Shown one piece after another: positions 1 through 32,435 of a stretch of DNA of 64,000 nucleotides. A program made the position numbers and the translations under genes. This DNA comes from Christensenella sp. UBA6880. GTDB taxonomy: Bacteria > Bacillota > Clostridia > Christensenellales > CAG-917. The stretch covers positions 237 to 64,236 of the forward strand of contig DKCG01000023.1 in assembly GCA_002449145.1 (NCBI GenBank). The letters are read 5' to 3'. The stretch's first letter is position 1. The number at the start of each line of letters is the position of its first letter. The notes under the pieces were generated by a model. The model saw nothing but the letters and a program-made list of their open reading frames with translations, did no database searches and was not told where the DNA came from.

Positions 1-265
1 ACTTTGATAAGACTATGTGCAATTCTCATTTGTTCTTTTTTCAAATCTCGGTCTGCTTGTGCCGTCGATATGCCGTTTCCGTATAATCCACATAAAAGGG
101 CGCAGACGCTTTATGCGCGCGCTTATAGTATACTTATATACTTTATTATTCATTATAATCAATATAATATCCGCAAAAATAGGCGGGGCGCGAGATAGGC
201 GATTCGCCGTTGAAAAAGATAAATAAAAATAACAAAAAAAATCTAAAAAATTTTTGCTAAAAGTA

Positions 266-294
266 TTGACAATTAGCAAAAGAGGACATATACT
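266..294 (+). promoter_or_regulatory. sigma-A type promoter of the hrcA operon
   Basis: TTGACA (266-271), 17-nt spacer, TATACT (289-294); immediately followed by the CIRCE-like palindrome. Confidence 0.6.
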
Positions 295-295
295 G

Positions 296-322
296 TTAGC
301 AATCAAAGCGAAAGACTGCTAA
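296..322 (+). promoter_or_regulatory. CIRCE-like HrcA operator (9-N9-9 inverted repeat)
   Basis: TTAGCAATC-AAAGCGAAA-GACTGCTAA versus the CIRCE consensus TTAGCACTC-N9-GAGTGCTAA; one deviation per arm; lies between the promoter and the hrcA RBS. Confidence 0.8.
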
Positions 323-345
323 AAGTCATAGCGAGGAAAGACGTT

Positions 346-1398
346 ATGAGAAAAGAGTTGACTGAAAGAAAAAAAAGAATACTGCACGCATTGGTTGACC
401 TGTATATATCTACGGGGCAGCCCGTGTCCAGTTCGGATATTCAAAGCAAGTATTTGCCCGAAGTCAGTTCTGCGACCGTGAGGTCGGAACTCAGCGCGCT
501 CGAAGCACTGGGATATATCGGACAACCGCATACATCATCAGGACGTATACCGCTTAAACAAGCATATAAGTTCTATGTGGAAACCGTCAGTGCTTCCGAT
601 AACGACAATATGCTTACCGATCAAGAAACAGCGCGTATCCGCAATAGGTTTATGAGCAAACTCGGCAAGATACAGAATATATCCAAAGAGGCGGCGAGAA
701 TAATAAGCGATGCGACAAATTACACATCGTTTGTTGTTAACAAAAACCTGCAAGACGTATTCATCGACGAGGTTAAACTCGTGCCGCTTAAAAACGGCAA
801 AGCACTTGTGCTTATCGTTACAAACAGAGGAATGATTACCGACAAGACGATAGACATTCCCGAGAATGTAAATGCGAAATACGTAGATACGGCAACAAAG
901 GTGCTGAACAAGGTTTTCCGAGGCAGAAACATCAAGGATATGGACAGATTCGACCTTACGGAAATCGATGTCGAACTCAAAGGTTTCGAGAGTATTCTCG
1001 ATGATGTGCTTGACATTCTGCGTGTTTACTTGTCGGAACATAAAGATAAAAACGTTTTCGTCGAAGGCGCGCTCAAAATGCTCGACTATCCCGAATACAA
1101 CAACGTCGAGGACGCAAAAAACTTCCTCTCGGTCATATCGGACAAGAAAAATATAGGCACTCTGCTTGCAGACAATGATAGTTCGATTGAGTTTTCTTTG
1201 CGAATAGGAAAGGAAGACAGGGGCGTCGATAAATGCGCAATCGTCACGGCTTCGTACAAAGTGGGCGACGAGGTGGTCGGCGAGGCGGGCGTTATAGGCC
1301 CCGAACGTATGGACTATAAAAAGGTTATCGGCGTGCTCGATTGTATGAAGAAAACAATCGCGAGCGTGGTGAAAGACAAAAAGAACAACGAGGACTGA
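346..1398 (+). CDS. hrcA: Heat-inducible transcription repressor HrcA
   Basis: 350 aa; N-terminal winged-helix region (ILHALVDLYISTGQPVSS) typical of HrcA; first gene of the hrcA-grpE-dnaK-dnaJ order; RBS GAGGAAAG upstream. Confidence 0.95.
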   Translation: MRKELTERKKRILHALVDLYISTGQPVSSSDIQSKYLPEVSSATVRSELSALEALGYIGQPHTSSGRIPLKQAYKFYVETVSASDNDNMLTDQETARIRNRFMSKLGKIQNISKEAARIISDATNYTSFVVNKNLQDVFIDEVKLVPLKNGKALVLIVTNRGMITDKTIDIPENVNAKYVDTATKVLNKVFRGRNIKDMDRFDLTEIDVELKGFESILDDVLDILRVYLSEHKDKNVFVEGALKMLDYPEYNNVEDAKNFLSVISDKKNIGTLLADNDSSIEFSLRIGKEDRGVDKCAIVTASYKVGDEVVGEAGVIGPERMDYKKVIGVLDCMKKTIASVVKDKKNNED

Positions 1399-1399
1399 A

Positions 1400-1996
1400 A
1401 TGAAAAACAAAGATAATTACGAAAACACAAACGAAAATAAAGTCGAAAGCCGAAACGACGAGCAATCGGAAGCGGAAGTCAAAGAGGACGAGAAAAAGTC
1501 CTTCGAGATAGAACGCGAGGGGCTGAGCGACGAGGAGTATATCGCCGCACTCGAAGAAAAACTCGGACAGGCAATCGCAGAGGCAGAAACCTGCAAAGGT
1601 TTGACTCAAAGACTGCAAGCGGATTTCGACAACTATCGCAAGCGCAACAATTCCATTGCCGAAGATATGAAGCAACTTGGACAATCCATAGTGATTGAAA
1701 AGATGCTTTCCGTGCTTGACAACTGCGACCTCGCAAGGAAGTACGTCAAAGACGAAGCGGCTCTTACGGGATTCAATATGATGGAAAGTCAGATTCTCGG
1801 CGCACTCGGCGGTTTCGGACTCTCCGAAGTGGACGCAATAGACAAAGACTTCGACGCAAAGTTTATGAGCGCGGTTGAAAGAGTCAAGGACGAAAAGAAA
1901 CAAGGCAAGGTGGTCGAAGTGCTTGCAAAAGGATATATGCTCGGAACGAAACTTTTAAGACCGGCAAGCGTAAAAGTCGGATATTGGGAAGAATAA
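1400..1996 (+). CDS. grpE: Nucleotide exchange factor GrpE
   Basis: 198 aa; acidic N-terminus, coiled-coil and GrpE C-terminal core ([16 protein letters not shown]); between hrcA and dnaK. Confidence 0.95.
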
Positions 1997-2130
1997 GCAA
2001 AGAGTATAGAAGCAAAACAACAAACAGAAAACAAAAAAATAAGACATTTCCGCAGCAATGCGAAAACATAAAAAACAAAAATAAGAAAAATTTTTATATT
2101 CCCGTTAAAGCGGGAGAAAGGAGAAACAAT

Positions 2131-3972
2131 ATGGGAAAGATTATCGGTATTGACCTTGGCACTACAAACTCGTGCGTAGCAGTTATGGAAGGCGGTGAAG
2201 CGGTGGTTATCCCCAACGCCGAAGGTATGAGAACGACCCCGTCCGTCGTGGCGTTCACAAAGGACGGCGAAAGACTCGTCGGCGAAATCGCTAAACGTCA
2301 GGCGGTCGCAAACCCCGAACATACGGTAAGTTCCATCAAGAGAGAGATGGGCTCCGATTACAAAGTAAAAATCGAAAACAAAGAATATACGCCGCAAGAA
2401 ATCTCGGCAATGATTTTGACCAAACTCAAAAACGACGCAGAGAAGTATCTCGGCGAAAAGGTTACGGAAGCGGTTATCACCGTTCCCGCATACTTCACGG
2501 ACTCTCAACGTCAAGCAACCAAAGACGCAGGTAAGATTGCGGGCTTGGAAGTGAAACGTATCATTAACGAGCCTACGGCGGCGGCACTCGCTTACGGTAT
2601 CGATAAGGACGAAAATAAGAATCAAAAAGTCCTCATCTTCGACCTTGGCGGCGGTACGTTCGACGTTTCTATCCTCGAACTCGGCGACGGCGTATTCGAA
2701 GTTCTTGCGACGGCAGGTAACAACCGTTTGGGCGGCGACGACTTCGATAAACGCATTATGGACTGGATCACCGGCGAATTCAAGAAAGAACACGGCGTTG
2801 ACCTCACCAAAGACAAGATGGCAATGCAACGTATCAAAGAAGCCGCAGAAAAGGCAAAGATCGACTTGTCCGGCGTGACCAAAGCAAAGATCTCGCTTCC
2901 GTTCATCGCAATGGAAAACGGCGTGCCTATGCACCTCGATATGGAACTTACCAGAGCAAAATTCGATTCGCTCACCGAAGATCTCGTCAAGGCAACGCAA
3001 GGTCCTATGCAACAGGCACTTAAAGACGCAGGACTCAGTTACAACGACATCGCAAAGGTCATTATGGTCGGCGGTTCGACTCGTATCCCCGCGGTTTACG
3101 AATCCGTCAAACGCATCACCGGCAAAGACCCGTATAAGGGAATCAACCCTGACGAGTGCGTGGCTCTCGGTGCGGCAATTCAAGGCGGCGTTCTCGCAGG
3201 CGAAGTGAAAGATATGCTCTTGCTCGACGTTACGCCGTTGTCACTCGGCATCGAAACTCTCGGCGGCGTTTGCACGAAACTCATCGACAGGAACACCACA
3301 ATTCCTACGAGCAAATCGCAAATATTCAGCACGGCAGCAGACAATCAAACCGCAGTCGACATTCACGTTTTGCAAGGCGAAAGACAATTTGCTCGCGACA
3401 ACAAGACTCTCGGCAGATTCGAACTTGTCGGTATCGCACCCGCACCGCGCGGTGTACCGCAAATCGAAGTCACCTTCGACATCGACGCAAACGGTATCGT
3501 ATCCGTCAAGGCTTGCGATAAGGCAACGGGCAAATCTCAATCCATCACCATCACCGCGTCTTCTAACCTCACCGAAGCGGACATCGACGCCGCTGTCAAG
3601 GACGCAGAGAAGTACGCAGAAGAGGATAAGAAGCGTAGAGCGGTCGTGGACGCAAAGAACAACGCCGAACAACTTATCTTCGCTGTCGATAAATTCGTAA
3701 GCGAAAACGGCGAGAAACTCGAAGAAGCAGACAAGACGCAAGTCACCGAAGCGACGAAGGCCGCAACCGAAGAACTTGCAAAGGCAGAAAGCGAAGACGA
3801 CGTGAAAGCGGTTGTCGAGAAATTGACGAAAGTCACCGACCCCATCTTCACGAAGTTCTATCAACAAAACCCCGAAGCGGCTGCAGAAGCGGCAAAGCAA
3901 GCGGGAATTAATCCCGAAGACTTCCAAGGCGGCGCAAATCCGGACGGCGGCGTAGACGGAACGGTTGAATGA
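2131..3972 (+). CDS. dnaK: Molecular chaperone DnaK (Hsp70)
   Basis: Hsp70 signatures [26 protein letters not shown]. Start moved from ORF-track 1984 to ATG 2131, which follows GGAGAAAGGAG. Confidence 0.97.
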
Positions 3973-3998
3973 TTAAGACCAAAACAATAACGAATCGA

Positions 3999-4022
3999 GG
4001 CGCAACGGGCAACCGTTGCGCC
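3999..4022 (+). other. 10-bp GC-rich hairpin with GCAA tetraloop between dnaK and dnaJ
   Basis: GGCGCAACGG-GCAA-CCGTTGCGCC; no U-tract follows, so it is more likely an attenuator or processing/stability element than a full terminator. Confidence 0.5.
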
Positions 4023-4135
4023 GAGACGTATAAAAAAGAAACTCGATTTATCGAATGTATTAAAGTTATCGAGATAACGTGCAAAAAGCACCTAAATACG
4101 AATAAAGGCAACCCGATAGGGTTGAAGAATAGATT

Positions 4136-5341
4136 ATGGCAGCAAAAAATTATTACGAAATACTCGGCGTCGAAAAGACGGCTACGGCAGACGAATTGAA
4201 AAACGCCTATCGTAAACTTGCAAAGAAATATCACCCCGATATGTACGTTTCGGCAAGCGAGCAGGAAAAGAAGGACGCAGAAACGAAGTTTAAGGACGTA
4301 AACCACGCCTACGAAGTGCTTTCCGATCCTCAAAAGCGTGCGGCATACGACACTTACGGTGATGAAAACGGACCGCAGGCCGGTGCGGGTTTCGGCGGTA
4401 ACGGATTTAGCGGTAGTGGATTTAGCGGTAATGGATTCAACGGATTTAGCGGATTCAGTACAGGTGGTATGGGCGCAGGCGGATTCGATATGGACGACAT
4501 TTTCTCGTCAATCTTTTCGGGATTCGGCGGTGGTTCGTCGAGAGCACAACGCGCAAATTCGCCTCAAAGAGGTCAGGATATTCTTGTCGGCGTTACAATA
4601 ACGTTCGAGGAAGCGGCATTCGGTACGCAAAAAACCATCAACGTCAAGAGAGTTGAAAACTGCCCCGACTGCAAAGGTACGGGCGCAAAGGACGGCACGG
4701 CGTTCAAGGTTTGTACGCAATGCAACGGCACGGGCAGAGTCACCACTACTCAACGTACGCCGTTCGGTCAGGTCAGCACGCAAGGCGTTTGTCCAACATG
4801 TCACGGCACGGGCAAGATTATCACGGAAAAGTGTCCGACTTGCGGTGGTGTAGGGCGTTTCGAAAAGGTGCGCGAAGTCAAGGTCAACATTCCTGCCGGT
4901 ATCGATTCGGGACAAAGAGTCAGATACGACAACGAAGGTCACGCAGGCTCGAACGGCGGTGAAAAGGGCGGCTTGTACGTCGAAGTCAGAGTCGCGCCGC
5001 ACAAACTCTTTTCCAGAAACGGGTTCGACGTGTTGCTCGAAGTGCCTATTTCAATCGTGGACGCAACGCTCGGCACGACTATAAAGGTTCCTACGCTTTA
5101 CGGCAATAAAGAAATCAAAATCCCCGAAGGTACGCAAAGCGGAACGGTCTTTACGATCAAGGGCTACGGCATTAAAAAACTCAAAGGCACGGGAAAGGGC
5201 GATATGTTCGTCAAGGTTGTCGTTGAAGTTCCCAAGAGTTTGAGTAAGGAACAAAAAGAACTTCTCAAACAATTCGATCAGGTTTCCGACCAGAAGAAAC
5301 AATATCCGCTCAAAAAAGCGTACGATGAGAAGGCAAAATAA
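4136..5341 (+). CDS. dnaJ: Co-chaperone DnaJ
   Basis: J domain with HPD (KKYHPD), G/F-rich linker, four CxxCxGxG zinc-finger repeats. Confidence 0.97.
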   Translation: MAAKNYYEILGVEKTATADELKNAYRKLAKKYHPDMYVSASEQEKKDAETKFKDVNHAYEVLSDPQKRAAYDTYGDENGPQAGAGFGGNGFSGSGFSGNGFNGFSGFSTGGMGAGGFDMDDIFSSIFSGFGGGSSRAQRANSPQRGQDILVGVTITFEEAAFGTQKTINVKRVENCPDCKGTGAKDGTAFKVCTQCNGTGRVTTTQRTPFGQVSTQGVCPTCHGTGKIITEKCPTCGGVGRFEKVREVKVNIPAGIDSGQRVRYDNEGHAGSNGGEKGGLYVEVRVAPHKLFSRNGFDVLLEVPISIVDATLGTTIKVPTLYGNKEIKIPEGTQSGTVFTIKGYGIKKLKGTGKGDMFVKVVVEVPKSLSKEQKELLKQFDQVSDQKKQYPLKKAYDEKAK

Positions 5342-5395
5342 GATAAATCACACAAAAGCGGCAATCTAAGCCGCTTAAATGCGAGAGTATAACGA

Positions 5396-6304
5396 ATGAA
5401 ATACAAAACTATTACGGTTTTTACAAACCATAACGACGCCGACCTCATCTCGTCAGCAATGTTTGACGCAGGTGCGGGCGGTGTTTCTATTTTGGACAAA
5501 CAAGACTTCCTCGACCTCGTAAAAAGCGACGTTATCTGGGACTACGTCGACGAAAGCGTTTTAAGTCAAAGCGAAGTGGTCAAAGTTTCCACGATGTACG
5601 AGCCCACCGACACGGGTTTTCTTGCCGCGCTCGAAGCGAATCTCGAAGAAATGAAGAAAAACGGCGTGCAATTCGGCGAAATACTGCTTGGCGAAATCGA
5701 CGCAGCGGATTACGAAAACGAGTGGAAAAAGTACTATAATCCCATAAAAACGAAGAATATAACCATAGTTCCCACTTGGATAGAATATAAGGCGAGCAAG
5801 GGCGAAAAGATTATGCGCCTTGACCCGGGAATGGCGTTTGGCACGGGTTCGCATGCAACGACGAAAATGTGCCTCGAACTTATGGACGTCGAGGGCAAAG
5901 ACGTCATCGACGTGGGGTGCGGAAGCGGCATTTTGGGTATTGCGGCAAAGATTTGCGGCGCAAAGAGCGTGTATATGTGCGACATCGACGAACAAGCGGT
6001 GGAATTTGCAAAGCGTAACGCCGAACTCAACAAAGTTGACGCAACAATAGAGAAAGCCGATTTGCTCGAAGGCGACCAACAAGCGGATTTTATATTTGCC
6101 AACATCACCGCCGACATACTTATGCGCTTTTCAAAGAGCATAGGCAAACATTTGCGCCCAAACGGAACTATCGTGTTGTCGGGTATAATTGACACGAGAC
6201 TCGACGAAGTGATACAATGTTATGAGGATGCGGGCTACGAAATCGTCGAACGTATGGCAATGGACGACTGGCGCGCGCTCAAACTCAAAAGAAAACAAAA
6301 TTAA
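5396..6304 (+). CDS. prmA: Ribosomal protein L11 methyltransferase
   Basis: 302 aa; SAM-binding DVGCGSGILG; conserved position after dnaJ. Confidence 0.9.
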   Translation: MKYKTITVFTNHNDADLISSAMFDAGAGGVSILDKQDFLDLVKSDVIWDYVDESVLSQSEVVKVSTMYEPTDTGFLAALEANLEEMKKNGVQFGEILLGEIDAADYENEWKKYYNPIKTKNITIVPTWIEYKASKGEKIMRLDPGMAFGTGSHATTKMCLELMDVEGKDVIDVGCGSGILGIAAKICGAKSVYMCDIDEQAVEFAKRNAELNKVDATIEKADLLEGDQQADFIFANITADILMRFSKSIGKHLRPNGTIVLSGIIDTRLDEVIQCYEDAGYEIVERMAMDDWRALKLKRKQN

Positions 6305-6316
6305 CCCGATTAGAAT

Positions 6317-7042
6317 ATGGAAATCAGAAGGTTTTTCGTCAATCCGCAAGACGTTTGCGCAAACGGTGAAATCGTCGTTTTTGGCGACGAGTTTTTGCAT
6401 ATGACGAAAGTTCTTCGCTACAAAACGGGTTACAAAGCGATTGTGTGCGCAAACGACGGCATAGAAAGATACTGCACGATAAAGCAAATCGACCGCGACA
6501 GAGCGATTTTGTCGGTGGACGATGAGAAAGTGCAGGACAAAAAGAGGGTGCACGTCACGCTGTTTGCAGGGCTTTTGAAGAACAATAAACTCGATTTTGC
6601 AATTCAAAAGGCGGTCGAACTCGGAATAGACGAAGTTTGTCCGTTTCTGTCGAGCAATACGGCGGAAACCAAGTTCGCAAAGGACAGGGCTGACAAAATC
6701 GCGCTCGAAGCCGCAAAACAGTGCGGTTCGGCGTATCTCACCAAAGTTTGCGAACTTTGCGATTTTCAAGACGTCGTAAAGTCGTTTGGCGACTTCGACA
6801 AAGTGCTGTTTGCCTACGAGGACGAGAAGAAAAACCGCATAAAAGATTGCGATTTGAGCGGCAAAAAGATTGCTTTGATTGTGGGCGCAGAGGGTGGTTT
6901 TACCCCCGAAGAAGCGAGAATCGCAAAAGAAGCGGGCGCGCAAATCGTGACGCTCGGCAGACGTATTTTGCGTGCGGAAACTGCCTCTATCGTGGCTTCC
7001 GCTTTACTTTTGGACACTCTGGGGGAACTTGATTATGAATGA
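6317..7042 (+). CDS. rsmE: 16S rRNA (uracil1498-N3)-methyltransferase RsmE
   Basis: 241 aa; RsmE-like with C-terminal LIVGAEGGFT motif; follows prmA as in many Firmicutes. Confidence 0.88.
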   Translation: MEIRRFFVNPQDVCANGEIVVFGDEFLHMTKVLRYKTGYKAIVCANDGIERYCTIKQIDRDRAILSVDDEKVQDKKRVHVTLFAGLLKNNKLDFAIQKAVELGIDEVCPFLSSNTAETKFAKDRADKIALEAAKQCGSAYLTKVCELCDFQDVVKSFGDFDKVLFAYEDEKKNRIKDCDLSGKKIALIVGAEGGFTPEEARIAKEAGAQIVTLGRRILRAETASIVASALLLDTLGELDYE

Positions 7043-8324
7043 CAAACTTCCCAAAATATCCGTATTTACGCTGGGTTGCAAGGTCAATCAGTACGACACG
7101 GACGCAATGCTCGCTATTTTCGAGCACTCTGGCTTCGAGATTGCAGAAGGGCTTGAATTTGCCGACGTTTACGTCATAAATTCTTGCGCCGTAACCGCCG
7201 AAGCAGAGAAAAAATCACGTCAATCGGTGGCGAGAATACTCAAAGTCAATCCCAACGCAAAGATTTTCGTGTGCGGTTGCGCTTCACAAAACAATTTTTC
7301 GCAATTTGCAAAAAACAACGTTCAATACATATCGGGTAGCGACGGAAAACTCGATTTCGCTCGCAAAATCGTCTCCGAATTTAAGGGCGAAGAAGAACAG
7401 TTCGACAAAATCGTTCCCGATAAGTTCGATATTAGTTCGGTTTTTGAGGATAACGACGGAATCGTGAATCTTCGCACGCGGCATTTTATCAAGGTTCAGG
7501 ACGGCTGCAACAACTTTTGCAGTTACTGCTTGATTCCTTACGTCAGAGGCAGAAGCCGCTCGCGCGCTATCGAGAGTATCGAAAGAGAACTCGACGACGT
7601 GCAAAACGTCGCAAAAGAGGTGGTCGTAACGGGCATAAATCTTTCCGCATACGGCAGAGATAACGGCTCGTCGCTCACCGAACTTATGAAAATGCTCTCG
7701 AAATACGATTTTGCCGTGCGACTCGGCTCGCTCGAAGTCGGCGTTGTGTCAAAAGAGTTTTTGGACGCGACGAAGGGCATAAAGAGATTTTGTCCGCATT
7801 TTCACTTGTCGTTGCAAAGCGGCGACGACAGAGTGCTTAAAGCGATGAATCGCCACTATACCTGCGACGAATACTATACGGCAGTGCAACTTATCAGAGA
7901 ATACTATCCCGACGCGGCGATTACGACGGACATCATCGTCGGTTTTCCGTGCGAAAGGGAAGAGGAATTTGAAAACTGTGTTGCTTTTGCAAGAAAAGTC
8001 GGATTTGCCGATATTCACGTTTTTCCGTATTCGTCGAGAAGGGGAACGGTTGCGGGGCGTATGCCCACACTTCCGCCCGAAGTGGTGCTCGACCGTCAAA
8101 AACGTATGAGCGCAGTCAAGCACGAACTTGTGCGCAACTACCTCAACAAGCAACTCGGTATGCCAACGAACGTGCTGTTTGAAACTCAAACGCACGGCGT
8201 TTGGTGCGGACATTCCCCGAACTACGTCAAAGTATACTCGAAAAACGGCGCGCATAACGAAATCCGTCTTATCACGCCCACGCACATCTATCTCGACGGC
8301 GTTGCAGACGACACCGTAAAATAA
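7035..8324 (+). CDS. mtaB: tRNA methylthiotransferase, MtaB/MiaB-like radical SAM enzyme
   Basis: N-terminal UPF0004-type domain (FTLGCKVNQYD), radical SAM CNNFCSYC, TRAM-like C-terminus. Start set at ATG 7035 rather than ORF-track 6972. Confidence 0.85.
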   Translation: MNDKLPKISVFTLGCKVNQYDTDAMLAIFEHSGFEIAEGLEFADVYVINSCAVTAEAEKKSRQSVARILKVNPNAKIFVCGCASQNNFSQFAKNNVQYISGSDGKLDFARKIVSEFKGEEEQFDKIVPDKFDISSVFEDNDGIVNLRTRHFIKVQDGCNNFCSYCLIPYVRGRSRSRAIESIERELDDVQNVAKEVVVTGINLSAYGRDNGSSLTELMKMLSKYDFAVRLGSLEVGVVSKEFLDATKGIKRFCPHFHLSLQSGDDRVLKAMNRHYTCDEYYTAVQLIREYYPDAAITTDIIVGFPCEREEEFENCVAFARKVGFADIHVFPYSSRRGTVAGRMPTLPPEVVLDRQKRMSAVKHELVRNYLNKQLGMPTNVLFETQTHGVWCGHSPNYVKVYSKNGAHNEIRLITPTHIYLDGVADDTVK

Positions 8325-8342
8325 AAAAAGGAAGAAATCGAT

Positions 8343-8684
8343 ATGGACAACTGCATTTTCTGCAAAATCGTAAAAGGCGATATCCCGTCTACGAAAGTCT
8401 ACGAAGACGACGATATGATTATCATAAAGGACTTGAATCCGCAAGCCCCCGTACATCTTTTGCTTATCCCCAAAGAGCATTACGCAAACATAATCGAGAT
8501 GACGGACTCTCAAGCGCAAACCCTCGCAAAATGCCTCAAAAAACTCTCTACGCTCACCGACGAATTGGGACTTCAAAACGGTTTCCGTCTCGTATCCAAC
8601 AAGGGTGAGGACGGTTGCCAGTCGGTCGGACATTTGCATATACATATACTTGGTGGACGAAAACTTAGTGATTCGATGTGCTAA
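8343..8684 (+). CDS. HIT-family (histidine triad) nucleotide hydrolase
   Basis: 113 aa; histidine triad HLHIHILGG. The last 5 codons and stop lie inside the 5' arm of repeat copy A. Confidence 0.9.
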   Translation: MDNCIFCKIVKGDIPSTKVYEDDDMIIIKDLNPQAPVHLLLIPKEHYANIIEMTDSQAQTLAKCLKKLSTLTDELGLQNGFRLVSNKGEDGCQSVGHLHIHILGGRKLSDSMC

Positions 8685-8798
8685 ATCGCGCCTAACTTTG
8701 TCAGAGGCACTCGCTCGACAACTCATTTACGATTAGTAAATTAGGGTTGCCGATCGAGTGCCTCTTTCGCGTTATGCATCGATTTAGCGCATCGAATC
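8670..8798 (+). repeat. Nested-hairpin repeat, copy A (type I loops, apical module 1)
   Basis: Outer stem 8670-8688/8780-8798 (18/19 bp, the mismatch is U.G); helix GCCTAAC:GTTATGC; loops TTTGTCA/TTTCGC; inner stem 8704-8717/8751-8764; apex CAACTCATTTACGATTAGTAAATTAGGGTTG. Confidence 0.85.
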
Positions 8799-8842
8799 TT
8801 GCAGATTTATATATAATCGGGTGTGGGCAGAGCCCACCCAAA

Positions 8843-14262: not shown

Positions 14263-14481
14263 ATGAAAAAAGTTTACAAACTCGAAGATCTCGATTGTGC
14301 AAATTGCGCCGCAAAAATGGAATGTGCCATTCAAAAACTTGACGGCGTCCAAAACGCGTCCGTCAGTTTTATGGCTCAACGTCTCACCATCGAAGCCGAT
14401 GACGCAAACTTTGACGAGATTATGAAGAAGGTTGTGAAGACTTGCCGTAAAATCGAACCCGACTGCACAATCGTTCTTTGA
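14263..14481 (+). CDS. Stand-alone heavy-metal-associated (HMA) domain protein
   Basis: 72 aa; CxxC metal site in LDCANCAAKME, ferredoxin-like HMA pattern; RBS GGAGAAACG; directly precedes the P1B ATPase. Confidence 0.85.
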   Translation: MKKVYKLEDLDCANCAAKMECAIQKLDGVQNASVSFMAQRLTIEADDANFDEIMKKVVKTCRKIEPDCTIVL

Positions 14482-14612
14482 GCGAATAACTGCGTCAGAC
14501 GCCACTGCACGACAACTCATTTACGTCAAGTAAATTAGGGTTGCCGTGCAGAAGCGTCTTCCTTGTTCTTCATCTCAAAGAACGATTGTGACCAAGTTCT
14601 TCATCCAAATAT
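14468..14612 (+). repeat. Nested-hairpin repeat, copy B (type II loops, apical module 1) plus a remnant 3' end
   Basis: Outer stem CAATCGTTCTTTGAG / CTCAAAGAACGATTG (15/15; 5' arm = T-I-V-L-stop of the HMA gene); helix GAATAAC:GTTCTTC; loops TGCGTCA/TTCCTT; inner stem GACGC..CTGCACG / CGTGCAG..GCGTC; then an orphan GTTCTTCATCCAAATAT at 14596-14612. Confidence 0.85.
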
Positions 14613-14672
14613 TACATTTTATGGGCGAGCGAACAAATCTTAATCTCAAACTCAATATAGACAAAGCGGATT

Positions 14673-20024: not shown

Positions 20025-20037
20025 GTGTAAAGCGTTA

Positions 20038-20157
20038 AGCGCGCTATTTGGCGTGATACTTCGTCAGTCACATCTTGCCTCAAAATCGTGTACGTCTATG
20101 TACACTGGGTTTTGATTCAAGATGTGCCTTTCTTGTCTGACGCTCAAATATCGCGAT
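20038..20157 (+). repeat. Nested-hairpin repeat, copy D1 (type II ends, apical module 2)
   Basis: Ends CGCGCTATTTG / CAAATATCGCG; inner stem CACATCTTG / CAAGATGTG; apex AAAATCGTGTACGTCTATGTACACTGGGTTTT; starts 14 nt after the stop of the upstream gene. Confidence 0.8.
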
Positions 20158-20175
20158 TAAAATCTCTTGCACATT

Positions 20176-20367: not shown

Positions 20368-21594
20368 ATGAAAAAAACGACTATGCAAAAATATGCTCGT
20401 CTTATCGCTCAAAAAGGCGTGAACGTGCAGAAAAATCAAGAAGTAATTATCCGCGCAGGACTCGACCAACCCGAATTTGTAAAAATGGTTGCAGAGGAAT
20501 GCTATCGCAAGGGCGCAAAGAAAGTTACGGTCGAGTGGGATTATCAACCGCTCACGAAAGTCAATTATCGTTATCGTTCGCTCAAATCTCTTTCCACGAT
20601 GGAAGAGTGGCAAGTCGAAAAACTCAAACATCAGGTTGACGCGCTTCCCGCGGTCATCTATATCGAATCGGAAGACCCCGACGGACTTAAAGGCGTGGAC
20701 CAATCAAAAGTCGCAAAGGCTCAACGTGCGATTTATCCCATCGTAAAACCTCTTCGCGACAAAATGGACAACAAGTATCAATGGTGTATCGCCGCAGTAC
20801 CGGGCGAAGCGTGGGCAAAAAAAGTGTTTCCGAACGAAAGAGTCGGTAAGGCTGTCGAGAAACTTTGGAACGCCATTCTTTACACGTCCAGAGCGGACGG
20901 CAACGACCCCGTTCAGGCTTGGAACGAGCATAACGCCGACCTCAAGGCAAGATACGATTATCTCAATTCGCTCGGCATAGAATCCTTGCATTATACGTCA
21001 TCTAACGGCACTAATTTCACCGTAGGACTCATTCCCGACGCACTCTTTCTCGGCGGAAGCGAGTTTACGCTCGGCGGTGTAGAGTTCAATCCTAACATTC
21101 CGAGCGAGGAAGTTTTTACGTCGCCTATGAAGGGCAAAGCGGAAGGTATCGTCTATGCAACTCGTCCGCTTTCCTATCGCGGCGAACTCATCGAGAATTT
21201 TTCCGTGCGATTTGAAAACGGCAAAGCGGTCGAAGTACACGCCGAAAAGGGTGAGGAACTTCTCAAACAAATGATTTCTATGGACGAAAACGCCGCATAT
21301 CTCGGTGAATGTGCTCTCGTTCCTTACGATTCGCCCATTCGCAATTCCGAAATAACCTTCCTCAACACCTTGTTCGACGAGAACGCTTGTTGTCACCTCG
21401 CACTCGGTCGCGGTTTTGAGAATTGTATCAAAGATTACGACAAATACACTCTCGAAGAATGTCGTCAAAAAGGCATCAACGATTCCATCATACACGTAGA
21501 CTTTATGATCGGCTCGCAAGATCTTGACGTGACTGCGCATACGAGAGAGGGGGTGGATGTAGCCATTTTCCGCAACGGCAACTGGGCATTTTGA
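20368..21594 (+). CDS. Aminopeptidase, M29 (AmpS/PepS) family
   Basis: 408 aa, full-length resemblance to thermophilic metalloaminopeptidase family proteins; the stop codon lies inside the 5' arm of repeat E1. Confidence 0.88.
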   Translation: MKKTTMQKYARLIAQKGVNVQKNQEVIIRAGLDQPEFVKMVAEECYRKGAKKVTVEWDYQPLTKVNYRYRSLKSLSTMEEWQVEKLKHQVDALPAVIYIESEDPDGLKGVDQSKVAKAQRAIYPIVKPLRDKMDNKYQWCIAAVPGEAWAKKVFPNERVGKAVEKLWNAILYTSRADGNDPVQAWNEHNADLKARYDYLNSLGIESLHYTSSNGTNFTVGLIPDALFLGGSEFTLGGVEFNPNIPSEEVFTSPMKGKAEGIVYATRPLSYRGELIENFSVRFENGKAVEVHAEKGEELLKQMISMDENAAYLGECALVPYDSPIRNSEITFLNTLFDENACCHLALGRGFENCIKDYDKYTLEECRQKGINDSIIHVDFMIGSQDLDVTAHTREGVDVAIFRNGNWAF

Positions 21595-21720
21595 GAGGCT
21601 GCCAAATAGCACCTAACTTTGTCAGAGACACCCACTCATCAATTCGTGTACGTCTATGTACACTAGAATTGCTGTTTGGGTGTCTCTTTCGCGTTATGTA
21701 TCTATTTGGCAGCCTCTCAA
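21591..21720 (+). repeat. Nested-hairpin repeat, copy E1 (type I loops, apical module 2)
   Basis: Outer stem TTGAGAGGCTGCCAAATAG / CTATTTGGCAGCCTCTCAA (19/19, includes the TGA stop); helix ACCTAAC:GTTATGT; loops TTTGTCA/TTTCGC; inner stem GAGACACCCA/TGGGTGTCTC; apex AATTCGTGTACGTCTATGTACACTAGAATT. Confidence 0.88.
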
Positions 21721-21787
21721 GCGCGCTATTTTTGGCGAATAACTGTGTCAAAGACCTTTTGCTTGTTCTTCATTCAAATATCGCGCT
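21720..21787 (+). repeat. Nested-hairpin repeat, copy E2 (minimal type II, no inner stem or apex)
   Basis: AGCGCGCTATTTTTGG-CGAATAACTGTGTCA-AAGACC-TTTTGCTTGTTCTTCAT-TCAAATATCGCGCT. Confidence 0.75.
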
Positions 21788-24536: not shown

Positions 24537-25886
24537 ATGATAAACGCGAACGAAGTGGTTGAAACCAACAAAATGATATCTTTCGAACACCTTGACGTGC
24601 GCACGGTCACGATGGGAATATCCCTTCTCGACTGCGTGAGCGACGATATTGACGTTCTTTGCCAAAGGGTACACGACAAAATCGTGAGCAAGGCGAAAAA
24701 TCTCGTCAAGGTCTGCGACGACATCGCAAACGAAATAGGCATACCTATCGTCAACAAGCGAATCAGCGTGACGCCGGTAAGCATAATCACGGCTCGCACC
24801 GGCGATTCGATAAAGGTTGCAAAAGTCCTTGACGAGTGCGCCGACGAAATCGGCGTGGACTTTGTGGGCGGATATACCGCGCTCGTACACAAGGGTATGA
24901 CCGAGTACGAAAAGAAGTTTATCGAATCCATACCCGCCGCGCTCGCTTGCACGAAAAAAGTATGTTCGAGCGTAAACATCGGCTCGACCAAAGCGGGCAT
25001 AAATATGGACGCGGTTGCCCTTATGGGCAAAATTATCAAAGAAACCGCATATCTGACGAGGGAAAACGACAGCATAGGCTGTGCAAAACTCGTCGTGTTT
25101 GCAAACGCAGTCGAGGATAATCCGTTTATGGCGGGTGCGTTCCACGGCGTAGGCGAAAACGATTGCGTCATAAACGTAGGCGTAAGCGGACCGGGCGTAG
25201 TGGAAGAAGCGTTGAAACACGTCAAAGGCGAAAACTTGACCGTCGTTGCCGAAACCATAAAGAAAGTCGCTTACAAAATCACGAGAGTAGGGCAACTCGT
25301 CGCGCAAGAAGCGTCCAAACGCCTTGACGCTCATTTCGGAATCATAGATTTGAGCCTTGCTCCCACGCCCGTAAAAGGGGACAGCGTTGCGCATATTCTC
25401 GAAGAAATCGGCGTTGACGTAGTTGGCGGCTACGGAACGACCGCCGCTCTCGCATTGCTCAACGACGCCGTGAAAAAGGGCGGTATTATGGCTTCGTCGC
25501 ACGTCGGCGGACTCAGCGGCGCGTTTATTCCCGTCAGCGAGGACATCGGAATGATAGAATCCGCACAAAAAGGTGTTCTAACCCTCGAAAAACTCGAAGC
25601 GATGACCGCAATTTGTTCCGTCGGACTCGATATGATTGCAATCCCCGGCGACACTTCTGCCGACGTTATTTCCGCAATGATTGCAGACGAATCCGCAATC
25701 GGCGTAGTCAACAACAAAACCACCGCCGTCCGTGTAATTCCCGTTTACGGCAAAAATTCGGGCAGCGTATCTTTCGGCGGACTTCTCGGCACAGCACCCA
25801 TTATGCCTATCAATCAAACTTCGCCGTCGAGACTAATTGAGCGTGGGGGGAGAGTTCCTGCCCCTATATGGTCCAACAAAAATTAA
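24537..25886 (+). CDS. UPF0210 (DUF711) family protein
   Basis: 449 aa; conserved ACT + UPF0210 gene pair; repeat C1 starts 6 nt after the stop. Confidence 0.85.
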
Positions 25887-25891
25887 ACGCC

Positions 25892-26000
25892 GCTATTTGG
25901 CGAATAACTGCGTCAACGCCCATCGTCTGTCAACTCATTTACGCCTTGTAAATTAGGGTTGCCATCCGATGGGTGTTTCCTTGTTCTTCATCCAAATATC
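25892..26000 (+). repeat. Nested-hairpin repeat, copy C1 (type II, apical module 1)
   Basis: Ends GCTATTTGG / CCAAATATC; CGAATAACTGCGTCA ... TTCCTTGTTCTTCAT; inner stem CGCCCATCG / CGATGGGTG with one G.U (only when the + strand folds); apex CAACTCATTTACGCCTTGTAAATTAGGGTTG. Confidence 0.85.
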
Positions 26001-26024
26001 AACGTTTAAGAAATGTGTGAGTAT

Positions 26025-26220: not shown

Positions 26221-26248
26221 ATTAAAAACGCGCATTATTTGCGCGTTT
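26221..26248 (-). terminator. Intrinsic terminator overlapping the rqcH stop codon
   Basis: Minus strand AAACGCGCA-AATAA-TGCGCGTTT followed by TTTTT; the 5' arm contains the last codons and TAA of rqcH. Confidence 0.7.
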
Positions 26249-30485: not shown

Positions 30486-31742
30486 ATGGAAAACTATCAT
30501 AAAGAACAACATTGCAGTTTTTGCGGCAGGGGCGCAAGCGAGGTTGAAAAAATCATCAGCGGCCCGAACGGCATAAATATCTGCAACGAATGTATCGACG
30601 AGTGCGTCTACTTGCTCGGAAAAGACGAAAAAACCGCAAACGACGGTATGAGTCTTTATACGCCCAAAGAGATAAAAGAGAAACTCGACGAATACATTAT
30701 CGGTCAGGACAGCGCAAAACGCGTATTGTCCGTTGCCGTGTACAATCACTACAAGCGTATAAATCAAATGCGCTCCAAGTCCAACGACGACGTCGTAATC
30801 GAAAAGAGCAACGTGCTTTTGCTCGGTCCTACGGGTTCGGGTAAAACCTTGCTTGCAAAAACGCTTGCGCAAATTCTCAACGTGCCTTTTGCGGTTGCGG
30901 ACGCAACGACGCTCACCGAAGCGGGTTACGTAGGCGAGGACGTCGAAAATATCCTTTTGAAACTCATTCAATCGGCAAACGGCGATTTGAAGCGCGCCGA
31001 AATCGGCATCGTGTACATCGACGAAATCGACAAAATCGCAAAGAAAGGCGAAAACGTGTCCATTACGCGCGACGTAAGCGGTGAAGGCGTGCAACAAGCG
31101 TTGCTCAAAATAATCGAAGGTACGGTTGCAAACGTTCCGCCTCAAGGCGGAAGAAAGCACCCCAATCAAGAGTGCTATCAACTCGATACGACGAATATCT
31201 TGTTCCTTTGCGGCGGCGCATTCGTGGATTTGGACAAGATTATCGACCAAAGAAAGGACAATTCAAAACTCGGTTTCGGCTCTGCCGTAAAAGGCACCGT
31301 CGATTATCGTTACGACGAACTTATCAAAGCGTTGCAACCCGCCGACCTCATCAAATACGGTCTTATCCCCGAATTTGTCGGTCGTGTGCCTATCGTAGTT
31401 GGTTTGAACGCGCTTGACGAGAACGCGCTCGTGAAAATCCTTTCCGAGCCGAAGAACGCACTCGTAAAGCAATACAAATATCAATTTGCCCTCGACGGCG
31501 TTACGCTCGAATTCGAGGACGACGCGTTGAGAGCGGTTGCGGCAAAGGCAATTCAACTCAACACCGGCGCAAGAGGATTGAGAGCAATTCTCGAAGACGT
31601 GTTGCTCGAACTTATGTTTGAGATTCCGTCCGAGAAAGACATCGAGAAAGTTATCGTCACAAAGGCTTCCATCGACAAGACGGAAAAGCCTATCGTGGTG
31701 AGAAAACAAATCGAAGAAAAAACAACAGATTGTATCGCATAA
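30486..31742 (+). CDS. clpX: ATP-dependent Clp protease ATP-binding subunit ClpX
   Basis: 418 aa; N-terminal zinc-binding CSFCG...CNEC, Walker A GPTGSGKT, Walker B VYIDEIDK. Confidence 0.97.
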
Positions 31743-31748: not shown

Positions 31749-31776
31749 AAAATAGCGCATCTAATGCGCTATTTTT
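31749..31776 (+). terminator. Intrinsic terminator after clpX
   Basis: AATAGCGCAT-CTA-ATGCGCTATT followed by TTTT. Confidence 0.75.
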
Positions 31777-31823
31777 ATAGTTTTTGCGTCGAAAACGACG
31801 TCAAAAACGGCAGAGAATAACAG

Positions 31824-32435
31824 GTGCAAAAGATGATAAAACAAGCAAAATTCGTAACGTCCGTCGCAGACGCGAGCAAGTTGCCCGACTACGGCGTGCC
31901 CGAAATCGCGATTGCGGGCAAATCCAACGTCGGCAAGTCCTCGTTTATCAATTTTATGGTGAACCAAAACAAACTTGCCAAGACCTCGCAAGAACCCGGC
32001 AGAACTCGTTTGCTCAACTATTTCGAGATAAACAACGGCGAGTATTATTTCGTTGACCTTCCCGGATACGGCTATGCGAAAGTAAACAAGCAAGAAAAGC
32101 AAAAGTGGGGCGGACTTATCGAAAACTATTTGCGCACGAGCAATCGCCTCATAAACGTGTTCGTGCTTGTCGATATGCGCCACGAACCAACCGACGACGA
32201 TAAAATGCTTATCAACTATTTGTACTCATACAATATTCCTTTTACGATTATAGCAACGAAAGCGGACAAACTCTCAAGAGCGCAACAACAAAAGTGTTTG
32301 AGCGTCATTGCAACTGCTCTTTGCGTCGGGACGAAAGATATTCTCGTCACGTCGGCGTCTGCAAAAACGGGTAAGGAAAACGTACTAACTAGAATAGAAA
32401 CGTTGCTTGCCAATGCCAAGCAAATTAATAATTAA
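31824..32435 (+). CDS. engB: Ribosome biogenesis GTPase EngB/YsxC
   Basis: 203 aa; G1 GKSNVGKSS, G3 DLPGYG, G4 TKADK. GTG start at 31824; an ATG at 31833 is also possible. Confidence 0.92.
   Translation: MQKMIKQAKFVTSVADASKLPDYGVPEIAIAGKSNVGKSSFINFMVNQNKLAKTSQEPGRTRLLNYFEINNGEYYFVDLPGYGYAKVNKQEKQKWGGLIENYLRTSNRLINVFVLVDMRHEPTDDDKMLINYLYSYNIPFTIIATKADKLSRAQQQKCLSVIATALCVGTKDILVTSASAKTGKENVLTRIETLLANAKQINN

Follow-up and report, generated by a model that had tools for sequence, protein, structure and literature searches.

A family of hairpin repeats at gene ends in gut Clostridia, with outer arms that can pair with the last codons of the upstream gene

Hairpins overlapping stop codons in a Christensenella contig

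The window analyzed here is the whole 64,000-nt stretch taken from contig DKCG01000023.1 of Christensenella sp. UBA6880. A covariance model (CM R1) locates eight copies of a single hairpin repeat in the window, all on the + strand and all within 18 kb. The core pattern occurs five times against zero expected, and eight long-range inverted 15-mer seeds (60-125 nt spacer) are present, compared to a mean of 0.56 in simulated sequence even for 12-mers. The repeat is an imperfect DNA palindrome consisting of an outer arm, box1, an asymmetric R box, a variable inner stem, a conserved apical hairpin, and the matching 3' half; the conserved part is about 115 nt long, and a whole copy, including the outer arms, about 130 nt. 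Copy A lies at the end of a HIT-family gene.

8343..8684, + strand: HIT-family (HinT-like) gene, stop TAA at 8682-8684 (ORF list; Pfam HIT/DcpS_C on the identical protein)
8670..8688, + strand: copy A 5' outer arm, GATTCGATGTGCTAAATCG, comprising codons D-S-M-C, TAA and ATCG; the last 8 nt, CTAAATCG, are box1
8689..8779, + strand: copy A inner part, with R box CGCCTAAC, variable inner stem, apical hairpin (8719-8751) and R' box GTTATGCAT (core pattern, alignment and consensus fold)
8780..8798, + strand: copy A 3' outer arm, comprising box1' CGATTTAG, GCGCA and TCGAATC
8799..8810, + strand: TTGCAGATTTAT, a probable remnant of an older, ordinary 3' arm (by sequence comparison with GCGCAGTTTTAT in L061 and L075)

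The initial annotation of this DNA had described outer stems made from the last codons and the stop codon of the upstream gene, and for copy A this is borne out: the arms pair at 18 of 19 positions with a single T.G, and the TCGAATC of the 3' arm is the inverted copy of the coding GATTCGA. The copy scores 138 bits under CM R1 (over 8669-8799), and its TGTGC is similar to the family consensus TGCGC. Folded as DNA, the hairpin reaches -41.2 kcal/mol (z -9.7, with 0 of 200 shuffles as stable), and the minus strand is its equal.

Copy B is found at the end of a gene for a small HMA-domain protein, upstream of a P-type ATPase gene.

14263..14481, + strand: HMA (CopZ-like) gene, stop TGA at 14479-14481 (Pfam HMA on the identical protein)
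14466..14482, + strand: copy B 5' outer arm, comprising codons (C)T-I-V-L, TGA and G; CTTTGAG is box1 minus one base
14483..14573, + strand: copy B inner part, with R box CGAATAAC, inner stem, apical hairpin (14513-14545) and R' box GTTCTTCAT; CM score 123.9 bits
14574..14590, + strand: copy B 3' outer arm, reproducing the gene end exactly in inverted orientation
14596..14621, + strand: orphan 3' end left over from an older element, comprising a duplicated R' box GTTCTTCAT, box1' CCAAATAT and arm TACATTTTA
from 14673, downstream of the HMA gene: P-type ATPase gene (Pfam E1-E2_ATPase on the identical protein)

Here the stem of T-I-V-L and TGA proves longer than the 15 of 15 pairs first noted, as the arms pair at 17 of 17 positions (14466-14482 with 14574-14590). 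The hairpin is again stable as DNA (-38.5 kcal/mol, z -10.3, 0 of 200 shuffles as stable, minus strand equal). The 5' partner of the orphan at 14596-14621 is missing in the window and present in strain L133.

The remaining copies flank an FMN oxidoreductase gene, an M29 aminopeptidase gene, and a 449-aa ORF.

20032..20163, + strand: copy C1, second apical type, 11 nt past the stop of a 686-aa FMN oxidoreductase gene; CM score 77 bits
20178..20264, + strand: copy C2, partial, apical type 1; CM score 51.3 bits over model positions 20-112
20368..21594, + strand: M29 aminopeptidase gene, stop TGA at 21592-21594 (Pfam Peptidase_M29)
21591..21720, + strand: copy E1, second apical type, CGTGTACGTCTATGTACAC at 21645-21663; CM score 119.2 bits
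21722..21785, + strand: copy E2, a mini element without the apical module; CM score 31.1 bits
21796..21807, + strand: second inverted copy of the M29 gene end (GCAGTCTCTCAA)
25881..26011, + strand: copy D1, outer arm TTAAACGCCGCTATTTGG including the TAA (25884-25886) of the 449-aa ORF; CM score 132.6 bits
26036..26155, + strand: copy D2, rearranged, with a nested 52-nt sub-module (26048-26099) and a core (26099-26143), the normal 3' half being absent
26227..26247, - strand: native rqcH terminator with the stop codon (26235-26237) in its loop; no CM match, outside the family

The arms of E1 (21591-21609 and 21702-21720) pair at 19 of 19 positions and contain the TGA, as described previously, but this stem is not built from the last codons, because the gene contributes a single coding base, T, in addition to TGA. 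The E1 hairpin is the most stable of the three as DNA (-42.6 kcal/mol, z -12.1, 0 of 200 shuffles as stable, minus strand equal). E2 sits within a 93-nt segment bounded by 26-nt direct repeats, and the segment is missing from strain L136. The rqcH terminator overlaps its stop codon as the initial annotation had it, and a second native hairpin overlapping a stop codon is found at 31736-31788.

An abundant repeat family placed on stop codons

The stems of A, B, and E1 belong to an abundant family of hairpin repeats in gut Clostridia that has not been described previously. A core scan recovered more than 114 loci among the matches listed, in about 17 uncultured gut Clostridia assemblies. Rfam 15 gave only a tRNA at the gathering score, the elements remaining unmatched and E<=1 adding chance hairpin matches alone. 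The literature searched contains neither the core sequence nor a Clostridia family of this kind, and a 2026 paper on metagenome 3' stem-loops does not cover the family.

An alignment of 81 copies has near-constant length, with double compensatory changes at 33 of 47 pairs. The three arm pairs of the window had been considered unrelated to each other; this holds for their outer 7-11 nt, the only locus-specific part of the arms, but the inner 7-8 nt are box1, which is common to the family and covaries throughout it (CTAAATCG in A, CTTTGAG in B, CCAAATAG in E1). The internal loops and the bulge are conserved and asymmetric, and a T.G in the apical stem is invariant (81 of 81). Inner elements are 93-99% conserved compared to 83-96% for neighboring coding DNA, which hints at a selected function or a dedicated machinery. 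Truncated copies have variable breakpoints, and sub-modules are nested by insertion at fixed places.

In its ordinary state, the 5' arm consists of TAA, an A-run, about six GC-rich bases and box1, and pairs with box1', GC-rich bases and a T-run; such arms look like a bidirectional terminator. None of A, B, and E1 is followed by a T-tract, in agreement with the initial annotation, but this does not extend to the family: the distal 3' arm carries a T-tract, paired with an A-tract that starts at the TAA stop, in 56 of 117 copies.

The family is strongly tied to gene ends. Of the 89 copies with an upstream ORF, 77 have its stop codon within the 5' outer arm, and 7 to 22 coding bases are paired in 23 of 85 copies. 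Co-orientation with the gene upstream holds for 64 of 88 copies, against six copies with a convergent gene (binomial p=2e-13). The replication strand was set aside as the cause of this polarity: GC skew is positive at 65 of 86 loci (76%), below the 64 of 70 for gene co-orientation, although skew at the 8-kb scale is too noisy to settle the matter. Neighboring genes are syntenic housekeeping genes (HIT, CopZ/CopA, FMN oxidoreductase, M29 peptidase), and copies are spaced 1.4-5.8 kb apart.

At a few loci, the sequence would fit a tail or stop codon supplied by the element; these are L114, L046/L104, and the RTK* tail common to L036 and L026.

Strain states and the origin of the coding-complementary arms

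The HIT site exists in other states in strains encoding an identical protein. In state A2/A3, the 5' arm is TAAAAAACCGCGCTAAATCG, an ordinary arm from the TAA stop. The state of the window (A1) corresponds to A2 minus 13 nt, with breakpoints at the short direct repeats GCTAA...GCTAA, and its stop codon thereby lies within box1. The A2 strains retain the coding-complementary 3' arm as a non-pairing fossil; their inner module and 5' arm were replaced and the 3' arm was not re-matched. Element replacement and flank copying are therefore separable. All proteins returned by the HIT homolog search are at least 93% identical, and empty sites were taken from strain look-ups and the loci already collected.

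A similar picture emerges at the HMA site. State B2 (L133, with an identical 72-aa HMA protein) has an ordinary arm, TAAAATGCACTATTTGG, and a 3' arm that matches the window's orphan at 14596-14621 with few substitutions. State B3 (L125, L126, and L129, again with the identical 72-aa protein) has a new element at the stop and the old CTCAAAGAACGATTGTG about 150 nt downstream; the 3' outer arm of copy B is present in these strains as a displaced fossil. The TGA of copy B replaces the TAA of other strains. A 13-nt deletion, with breakpoints at the short direct repeats CTA...CTA, relates B1 to an arm like that of B3. Their R boxes are not the same, however (CGAATAAC versus CGCATAGC); hence no sampled strain state is the direct ancestor of B1, and B2 and B3 account for one half each. 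An element-free HMA ortholog (L012) has neither a complement of the gene end nor a 3' arm.

Three origins had been proposed for the coding arms, and these strain states bear on each. For A and B, the other strain states, the orphan older 3' arms downstream, and the armless element-free ortholog all support inverted copying of the flank, although the copy was not necessarily made at insertion. Element-derived C-terminal tails account for the stop codons, which in A and B lie in box1 (with TGA in B as opposed to TAA elsewhere), but not for the last sense codons of HIT and HMA; these are native, since strains with a different element state encode the same proteins. Insertion of the core into a pre-existing stop-proximal hairpin is not borne out for A and B, and is possible for ordinary members, which have terminator-like arms. 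The comparison of orthologous 3' ends that had been suggested could be made for HIT and HMA in relatives, the latter including an element-free site that lacks the 3' arm.

The last of these origins can be generalized: a module with a preference for native stop-codon terminators would insert into their loops, so that both arms would be older than the element. This agrees with the native bidirectional terminator form of ordinary arms (A-run, GC-rich stem, T-run; T-tract as counted above), with the stop-overlapping hairpins native to this genome (rqcH and 31736-31788), with the near-identical arms that surround different inner modules at orthologous sites such as L011 and L112, and with the position of Bacillus subtilis terminators a few nt past stop codons, as given in the part of PMC7858274 that cites Johnson et al. 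2020. However, the arms of A and B are coding sequence with no T-tract after them, sister strains with identical proteins lack the pairing or have the 3' arm only as a displaced fossil, and the element-free L012 ortholog has no 3' arm. Among the orthologous pairs, none consisted of a plain terminator and the same terminator with an element in its loop. We consider such a target-site preference very unlikely.

Instead, we propose that fold-back template switching during DNA synthesis extends the DNA palindrome into the coding flank, with the buried stop codon as a by-product; our confidence in this is somewhat better than even. Copies A and B lack 13 nt that separate the stop from box1 in the sister strains, with breakpoints at the short direct repeats, and the ORF therefore continues directly into box1 and terminates there. 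The 3' arm would then have been re-made as an inverted copy of the new, coding, flank, most likely by intrastrand (fold-back) template switching, which is known to perfect and extend quasi-palindromes, and the older 3' arm would have been displaced downstream, to survive as an orphan. We infer both the copying mechanism and the order of these events.

Several observations are in keeping with fold-back copying. Perfect stems are reported to arise, and to be repaired, through template switching (PMC8794818, PMC5453318), which has also been held responsible for mutations that lengthen quasi-palindromes (PMC3820800). The 3' arms of A, B, L087, and L037 consist of new sequence that is the reverse complement extending an existing inverted repeat, and states that appear to precede the repeat, with the footprints of switch points, are seen in B2/B3, A2/A3, the element-free L012, and the orphan at 14596-14621. 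The process seems to recur: comparison of L037 with L079 reveals a 19-bp arm with 14 coding nt in addition to an orphan old arm, and 22 coding nt are paired in L087. L073 is a perfect palindrome with its core inverted, exactly the product expected of a template switch. The way in which arm differences between orthologs are compensated and the excess of A.C mismatches, both detailed below, point in the same direction. Template switching by itself does not account for the gene-sense polarity or for the position on stop codons, and the high conservation of the inner element likewise falls outside it.

These last features would suit a dedicated mobility system, in which a hypothetical hairpin-specific enzyme (HUH/RAYT-like or tyrosine recombinase-like) integrates elements in sense orientation at stop codons, the inverted copy of the flank being made during integration, for example by hairpin-primed fill-in, as an "inverted target-site duplication". 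New elements are always gene-proximal, with older 3' halves pushed downstream; gene polarity is strong and exceeds that of GC skew (64 of 70 versus 76%); the conserved asymmetric loops and bulge and the invariant apical T.G would be appropriate for a protein recognition site; sub-modules are nested at fixed places; the inner sequence is highly conserved; and re-matching of the arms accompanies element change. On the other hand, A2 strains swapped the inner module and 5' arm and left the 3' arm as it was, the breakpoints of truncated copies vary, and the coding copy at a single orthologous site can be anything between 0 and 22 nt long (window, L002, and L087). When all ORFs of 120 aa or longer from about 900 kb of loci were clustered, a weak test, only orthologous sets emerged, with no multicopy transposase or other multicopy or element-flanked ORF as a candidate partner. 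A mobility system of this kind is unlikely in our estimation. The more specific proposal, that the hairpins are the cis sites of an integration system that puts a module on stop codons in sense orientation and copies the upstream flank, inverted, while integrating, we regard as distinctly unlikely. If true, inverted target-site duplication would be an insertion mode not described for bacterial elements, and the enzyme, or else an RNA-binding protein with the modules as its 3' UTR tags, would recognize the conserved apex and internal loops.

Burial of the stop codon in a helix had also been suggested to affect termination or ribosome release. An mRNA 3' hairpin that sequesters the stop codon and is kept by compensation could tune translation termination, ribosome release, transcription termination, or 3' end stability. 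The extensive covariation (33 of 47 pairs), the sense orientation of elements that start at the stop codon, the conservation of the inner sequence above neighboring coding DNA, and the invariant sense-strand T.G wobble are what such selection would leave, as are three compensated synonymous changes between L058 and L099. However, A.C mismatches exceed G.U (G.T in the DNA) in the variable stems (71 versus 45), few one-sided G.U intermediates occur, the two strands are equally stable when folded, and the repeat has no match to an Rfam family even at E<=1. Neither the count of G.U versus A.C nor the opposite-strand fold provides a sense-strand signature, and we rejected RNA-level selection on this basis. 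In sister strains with an identical protein, 13 nt interrupt the coding part of stem A, so that strains of a single species already fail to preserve the pairing.

There is no ongoing compensation where the element stays the same. Arm differences between orthologs are compensated in 19 of 26 cases if the inner element differs and in four of 22 if it does not (Fisher p=1.8e-4), a comparison of few, non-independent pairs that is confounded with divergence time. The 18 uncompensated differences beside an unchanged element include three mismatches in L025. The suggested effect on termination is at odds with the unpaired sister strains, the uncompensated changes in coding arms, and the lack of G.U tolerance; a regulatory role for burial of the stop codon is not supported, and we consider a selected RNA structure quite improbable.

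If fold-back copying is correct, the family provides a natural case, repeated at many loci, in which copying enlarges a palindrome into coding sequence, and strains of a common human gut bacterium still differ in which intermediate state they carry. Covariation that looks cleanly "compensatory", down to synonymous codon changes, would then be obtainable without RNA selection, a caution for structure-based discovery of ncRNAs. Apart from mechanism, the analysis reveals an abundant repeat family, absent from Rfam and the literature searched, with strict gene-end polarity and unusually high conservation, that remodels gene 3' ends at the strain level through stop codon choice, short tails, and spacer length.

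Comparison with known systems

Integron attC sites are hairpins of 60-140 nt with a fixed orientation, placed directly after the preceding ORF and often overlapping its stop codon; their structure is conserved above sequence, and they have conserved unpaired bases and AAC...GTT basal boxes; these boxes (R''/R') read RYYYAAC...GTTRRRY, with GTT invariant, and the apex is the most variable part. The family resembles attC in its position after or overlapping the stop, its fixed orientation, its conservation of structure above sequence, and the basal boxes of copy A (GCCTAAC...GTTATGC). However, these A-type boxes only nearly fit, the G-type boxes GAATAAC/GTTCTTC do not, and AAC/GTT is changed to AGC/GCT (A:T to G:C, columns 29/109) in 11 of 81 copies. 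Moreover, the apex is the most conserved part of the family, its stems reach beyond the boxes, and its copies follow syntenic housekeeping genes at the spacing given above and not promoterless cassette arrays; an integron integrase was not seen. Box covariation, gene content, and spacing led us to reject an identity with attC.

REP, BIME, and REPIN sequences are found in Enterobacteria and Pseudomonas and are mobilized by RAYT/TnpA-REP. They are high-copy extragenic imperfect palindromes at gene 3' ends, mosaic and modular, with compensated hairpins, and are inherited vertically, persisting across species (PMC3116915, PMC8266576). The family is likewise high-copy, extragenic, and imperfectly palindromic, with stable hairpins (z -10 to -12). 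It differs in being a single 130-nt hairpin with asymmetric boxes, as opposed to two inverted REPs of 20-40 nt, and has no GTAG-type head; its outer arms are locus-specific, contain the stop codon and sometimes coding sequence, its gene polarity is strict, and its hosts are Clostridia. Among the ORFs clustered at the loci, a RAYT was not identified.

Intrinsic terminators abutting stop codons in Firmicutes, the "runaway transcription" signature treated in the part of PMC7858274 that cites Johnson et al. 2020, are similar in having the stop in or next to the 5' arm and a T-run after the hairpin. The family hairpin differs from them in its length of about 55 bp and its conserved internal loops and apex, and about half of the copies are without a T-run. 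ERIC/RU elements and Coxiella MITEs are intergenic repeats that give adjacent genes stop codons or short C-terminal tails (PMC2759123, PMC5896051), which L114, L046/L104, and the tail of L036/L026 fit by sequence. A and B depart from this, the repeat holding just the stop codon and the last sense codons belonging to the gene itself. The outermost arms also vary by locus and are inverted, unlike the fixed terminal inverted repeats with direct target duplication of MITEs; the only direct repeat seen in the family is the 26-nt repeat around E2.

A parallel to our preferred reading is quasi-palindrome template switching (Ripley; the four-point model of Loytynoja and Goldman), in which a palindrome is perfected or lengthened in one step by copying an arm or its flank. 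It leaves behind inverted spacers, small duplications at the return point, and "compensatory" changes that cover several bases at once (PMC8794818, PMC5453318, PMC3820800). What sets the present case apart is that the events, as we infer them, recur at many loci of one family and take the end of a protein-coding gene as template, the product being a non-coding inverted copy of its last codons.

A repeat family at gene ends

The hairpins at the ends of the HIT (copy A), HMA (copy B), and M29 (copy E1) genes belong to a repeat family whose core, CAACTCATTTACGNNNNGTAAATTAGGGTTGCC, occurs five times in the window, on the + strand every time (none expected); a second apical type, CGTGTACGTCTATGTACAC, occurs twice. 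A core scan over one genome per species returned more than 114 family loci among the matches listed, all in about 17 assemblies of uncultured gut Clostridia labeled Christensenella sp. UBA767/7571/7588, UMGS1042/1170/1331/1366, or Firmicutes bacterium CAG:238; several of these bins are evidently misnamed. In an alignment of 81 copies, length is nearly constant (131 nt counting 20-nt arms), and the consensus runs from the outer arm through an 8-nt box1, an asymmetric R box (CGAATAAC or CGCCTAAC, facing GTTCTTCAT or GTTATGCAT), and a variable inner stem to a conserved apical hairpin (2-nt bulge, invariant T.G), followed by the 3' half. Double compensatory changes are found in 33 of the 47 consensus pairs. 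A covariance model derived from this alignment was used to search the window and identified eight copies, all on the + strand, spanning 8.6-26.2 kb.

Family copies (covariance model) and nested sub-module in the window
8669-8799, + strand, copy A
14463-14593, + strand, copy B
20032-20163, + strand, copy C1
20178-20264, + strand, copy C2
21590-21721, + strand, copy E1
21722-21785, + strand, copy E2
25881-26011, + strand, copy D1
26099-26143, + strand, core of copy D2
26048-26099, 52-nt sub-module, also in L010, L049, L106, L110, and L085 (L-numbers denote loci from other assemblies or strains)

The polarity of the family is well defined, because the model scores only about half as much on the reverse strand. 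All eight copies lie within one 18-kb stretch; the other 46 kb (1-8600, 26200-64000) hold plain terminators only, so the repeats are clustered and not present at each gene end. Rfam has no family matching the elements, nor was the core sequence found in the literature searched; the repeat family appears to be undescribed.

In some copies, the 5' internal loop holds the 52-nt sub-module (GACGCGATTGAC...CAATCGC...CCTTAC), which forms a small hairpin of its own; a shorter form lies on the 3' side of another copy (L085). This nesting indicates that the repeats insert into each other. Stacks of 5'-truncated elements are found at L142 (~1070-1330), L013, L028, and L063. Their members start at AATTAGGG, the 3' half of the apical hairpin, directly past the T-run of the preceding arm, which suggests recurrent breakage or recombination within the conserved core. 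Near the repeats, 22278-22468 (- strand) is probably a divergent 6S RNA gene: it gives a sub-threshold Rfam 6S/SsrS match over the full model (35 bits vs. a gathering threshold of 46.4, E=5.6e-4), directly followed on that strand by a perfect terminator hairpin (22241-22272).

Stop codons in the outer stems

The observation of three outer inverted repeats, made in the initial annotation, is confirmed, with adjustments. The stops of HIT (8343..8684), HMA (14263..14481), and M29 (20368..21594) fall within the 5' arms. The stem of copy A is as described (8670-8688 with 8780-8798, 18/19, a single T.G), and that of copy B is two pairs longer than claimed (14466-14482 with 14574-14590, 17/17). The E1 stem pairs 19/19 (21591-21609 with 21702-21720), but its coding share amounts to one coding base plus the TGA. 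The arms had been called unrelated; this applies to their outer 7-11 nt, which are locus-specific, but not to the inner 7-8 nt, which are box1 and covary family-wide. Folded as single-stranded DNA, hairpins A, B, and E1 reach -41.2, -38.5, and -42.6 kcal/mol (z-scores -9.7 to -12.1), and inverted repeats at this spacing are far more frequent than expected by chance.

The stop-codon association is a property of the whole family. Among the 89 copies preceded by an ORF of at least 70 aa, 77 have its stop within the 5' outer arm, and a co-oriented ORF of at least 100 aa terminates in or beside that arm in 64 of 88, while a convergent ORF terminates in the 3' arm in only 6 (64 vs. 6, p=2e-13). The stop is TAA in 54 of the 64. 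In 39/64 it lies 14-18 nt ahead of the inner end of the arm, where it opens an A-run whose partner is a T-run at the distal end of the 3' arm, making the hairpin base look like a bidirectional terminator; 56 of 117 copies have a T-tract. Two smaller groups, of 8 copies each, have the stop within box1 (offsets 2-3 and 6-7), and copies A and B are among them. Coding bases, 7 to 22 in number, are paired in 23/85 copies.

Outside the family, a native hairpin with 25-nt arms (31736-31788) holds the stops of both convergent ORFs (30486..31742, + strand; 31761..32183, - strand); together with rqcH, it shows that this genome generally tends to place hairpins over stop codons.

Strain states and the origin of the arms

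Contigs encoding an identical 72-aa HMA protein show three states of the HMA-ATPase spacer, the window being B1. In B2 (L133), an ordinary element reads ...GTT CTA TAA AATGCACTATTTGG, R box ... R' box (R' being the 3' side), TCAAATATTATATTTTA. Its 3' arm matches, with few substitutions, an orphan arm in the window (14596-14621; GTTCTTCAT CCAAATAT TACATTTTA) that lies shortly past the 3' arm of copy B without a 5' partner. B3 (L125, L126, L129) has another ordinary element at the stop, CTA TAA AGCACGCTATTGAG, and then a 5'-truncated B1 element keeping CTCAAAGAACGATTGTG, ~150 nt from the gene end complementary to it. The window 5' junction, GTTCT/TTGAG, is a B3-like arm less 13 nt (GTTCT[ATAAAGCACGCTA]TTGAG); this loss shifts the stop from TAA to TGA within box1 and alters the last Leu codon synonymously.

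The HIT site likewise has several states among contigs with an identical HIT protein. A2 reads GTGC TAA AAAACCGCGCTAAATCG and has a different inner module, with the same 3' arm, CGATTTAGCGCATCGAATC, as the window state A1; this arm is unable to pair with the 5' arm of A2 past 11 bp. A1 equals A2 less 13 nt, lost between direct repeats GCTAA...GCTAA. In A3 (L142), the first element has a 3' arm, CGATTTATCGCGGTTTTT, that fits its own 5' arm; older 5'-truncated 3' halves are stacked behind it, the last bearing the coding-complementary arm. A sister species (HIT 94% identical) has an ordinary arm (TAAAACCGCACCAAATCG / CGATTTGGTGCGGTTTTT) at the site, and there stacked repeats make the distance to the next gene range from ~300 to 1250 nt among strains. 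Species differ in how far the coding copy extends at the HIT site: the window has 7 nt, L087 has 17 nt (for a total of 22 paired coding bases, with three later uncompensated transitions), and L002 ~0. The HIT-metallophosphoesterase spacer ranges from 230 to ~1250 nt among strains of the same or sister species (L115-L124 ~1842-3100; L138-L147) because hairpin halves are stacked in it along with further recurrent non-coding repeats, such as ...AACTTATTCAAGGCGTACTTATAAACGGAATGTGC...GAGCCGCAAGGCGGCGAG.... In a metagenomic HIT variant (P0013), the stop is changed from TAA to GAA, and the frame reads 20 more codons across the hairpin to a TAG in the apical stem.

Three explanations had been offered for the coding arms: insertion into pre-existing hairpins, inverted copying of the flank, or element-derived protein tails. 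The first would place both arms at element-free sites. The HMA ortholog of L012 has no family element at the gene end, and the sequence past its stop holds no complement of that end; the 3' arm is absent, which speaks against pre-existing arms for A and B. Unrelated genes repeat the architecture, in which a new arm complements the coding end and an older arm lies orphaned after it. L037 and L079 have a common gene end (MSRV*), and L037 carries a 19-bp arm including 14 coding nt, then an orphan ...CTGTTTGGCGCACTTAG that is the 3' arm of L079; L020 and L087 show it as well. Two inverted copies of the M29 end are present at E1. A 93-nt segment within 21715-21830, flanked by 26-nt direct repeats (CAGYCTCTCAAGCGCGCTATTTTTGG) and comprising mini element E2 and one copy of the repeat, is found in the window, L135, and L137 and is missing from L136. 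Inverted copying is thus best supported, by the strain states, the orphan arms, and L012.

Element-derived tails apply to A and B in a narrow sense: box1 holds the stop codon, but the final sense codons are native, as identical proteins are found alongside other states of the element. Sequence comparison points to real element-derived tails or stops at other loci. The TAAAAAC of the L114 arm terminates the ORF 7 codons short of the L088/L101 ortholog ends, the ORF of L046/L104 continues through the arm up to the R-box TAA, the arm-plus-box1 consensus encodes the RTK* tail that L036 and L026 have in common, and the HIT variant P0013 runs past its lost stop into the element.

Copying, selection, and known systems

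The alternative that the buried stop has a regulatory meaning predicts selection on a sense-strand RNA helix. Five observations favor copying instead. In L073 the palindrome is perfect: the 3' half reproduces the 5' half as its exact reverse complement, even at the normally asymmetric R box, and the core is inverted; this form would be expected if synthesis took the opposite arm as its template. For orthologous pairs sharing a stop offset, a change in the 5' arm is compensated in 19/26 cases where the inner element differs and in just 4/22 where it is the same (Fisher p=1.8e-4, with divergence time as a confounder), indicating that pairing is reset in events and not continuously maintained; in L025, for example, the B arm carries three uncompensated changes in an element otherwise 99% identical. 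In variable stems, A.C mismatches (71) exceed G.T (45), the opposite of the prediction from such selection, and one-sided G.U intermediates are rare. The opposite strands of hairpins A, B, and E1 fold with equal stability, and sister strains encoding the same protein have an interruption in the coding part of stem A. The evidence does not support the regulatory reading. Replication template switching is known to create perfect stems, fix mismatches in one step, and extend quasi-palindromes (PMC8794818, PMC5453318, PMC3820800).

Most likely, an ordinary copy would first lose 13 nt between stop and box1 by slippage between short repeats, joining the ORF to box1. The nascent strand could then fold back at the now unpaired hairpin base, copy the coding flank, and rejoin the template a few bases upstream, which would leave a duplicate of the R' box or of GCA, with the old arm orphaned. 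Template switching does not account for the sense-orientation placement on stop codons. Gene polarity (64/70) exceeds GC-skew polarity (65/86), and new elements are on the gene-proximal side in every case. Between species, identity is 93-99% over the inner 91 nt and 83-96% in the adjoining coding DNA, and the DNA past the 3' arm is unalignable; this pattern could reflect selection, concerted evolution within the family, or dedicated integration machinery. Clustering of the ORFs at the loci, a weak test, yielded no partner protein.

The repeat family itself merits follow-up, and the growth of stems into coding DNA is best classed with quasi-palindrome template-switch mutations, as a new and recurrent variant. 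Terminators near stop codons have been reported in B. subtilis (PMC7858274), and the family's ordinary arms resemble these. Integron attC sites are similar in position, polarity, and 'structure over sequence', but the family does not match their box and cassette pattern. The closest in working are REP/BIME/REPIN elements, likewise high-copy structured palindromes at gene ends, although the Clostridia family does not share the anatomy that defines them and has no known RAYT.
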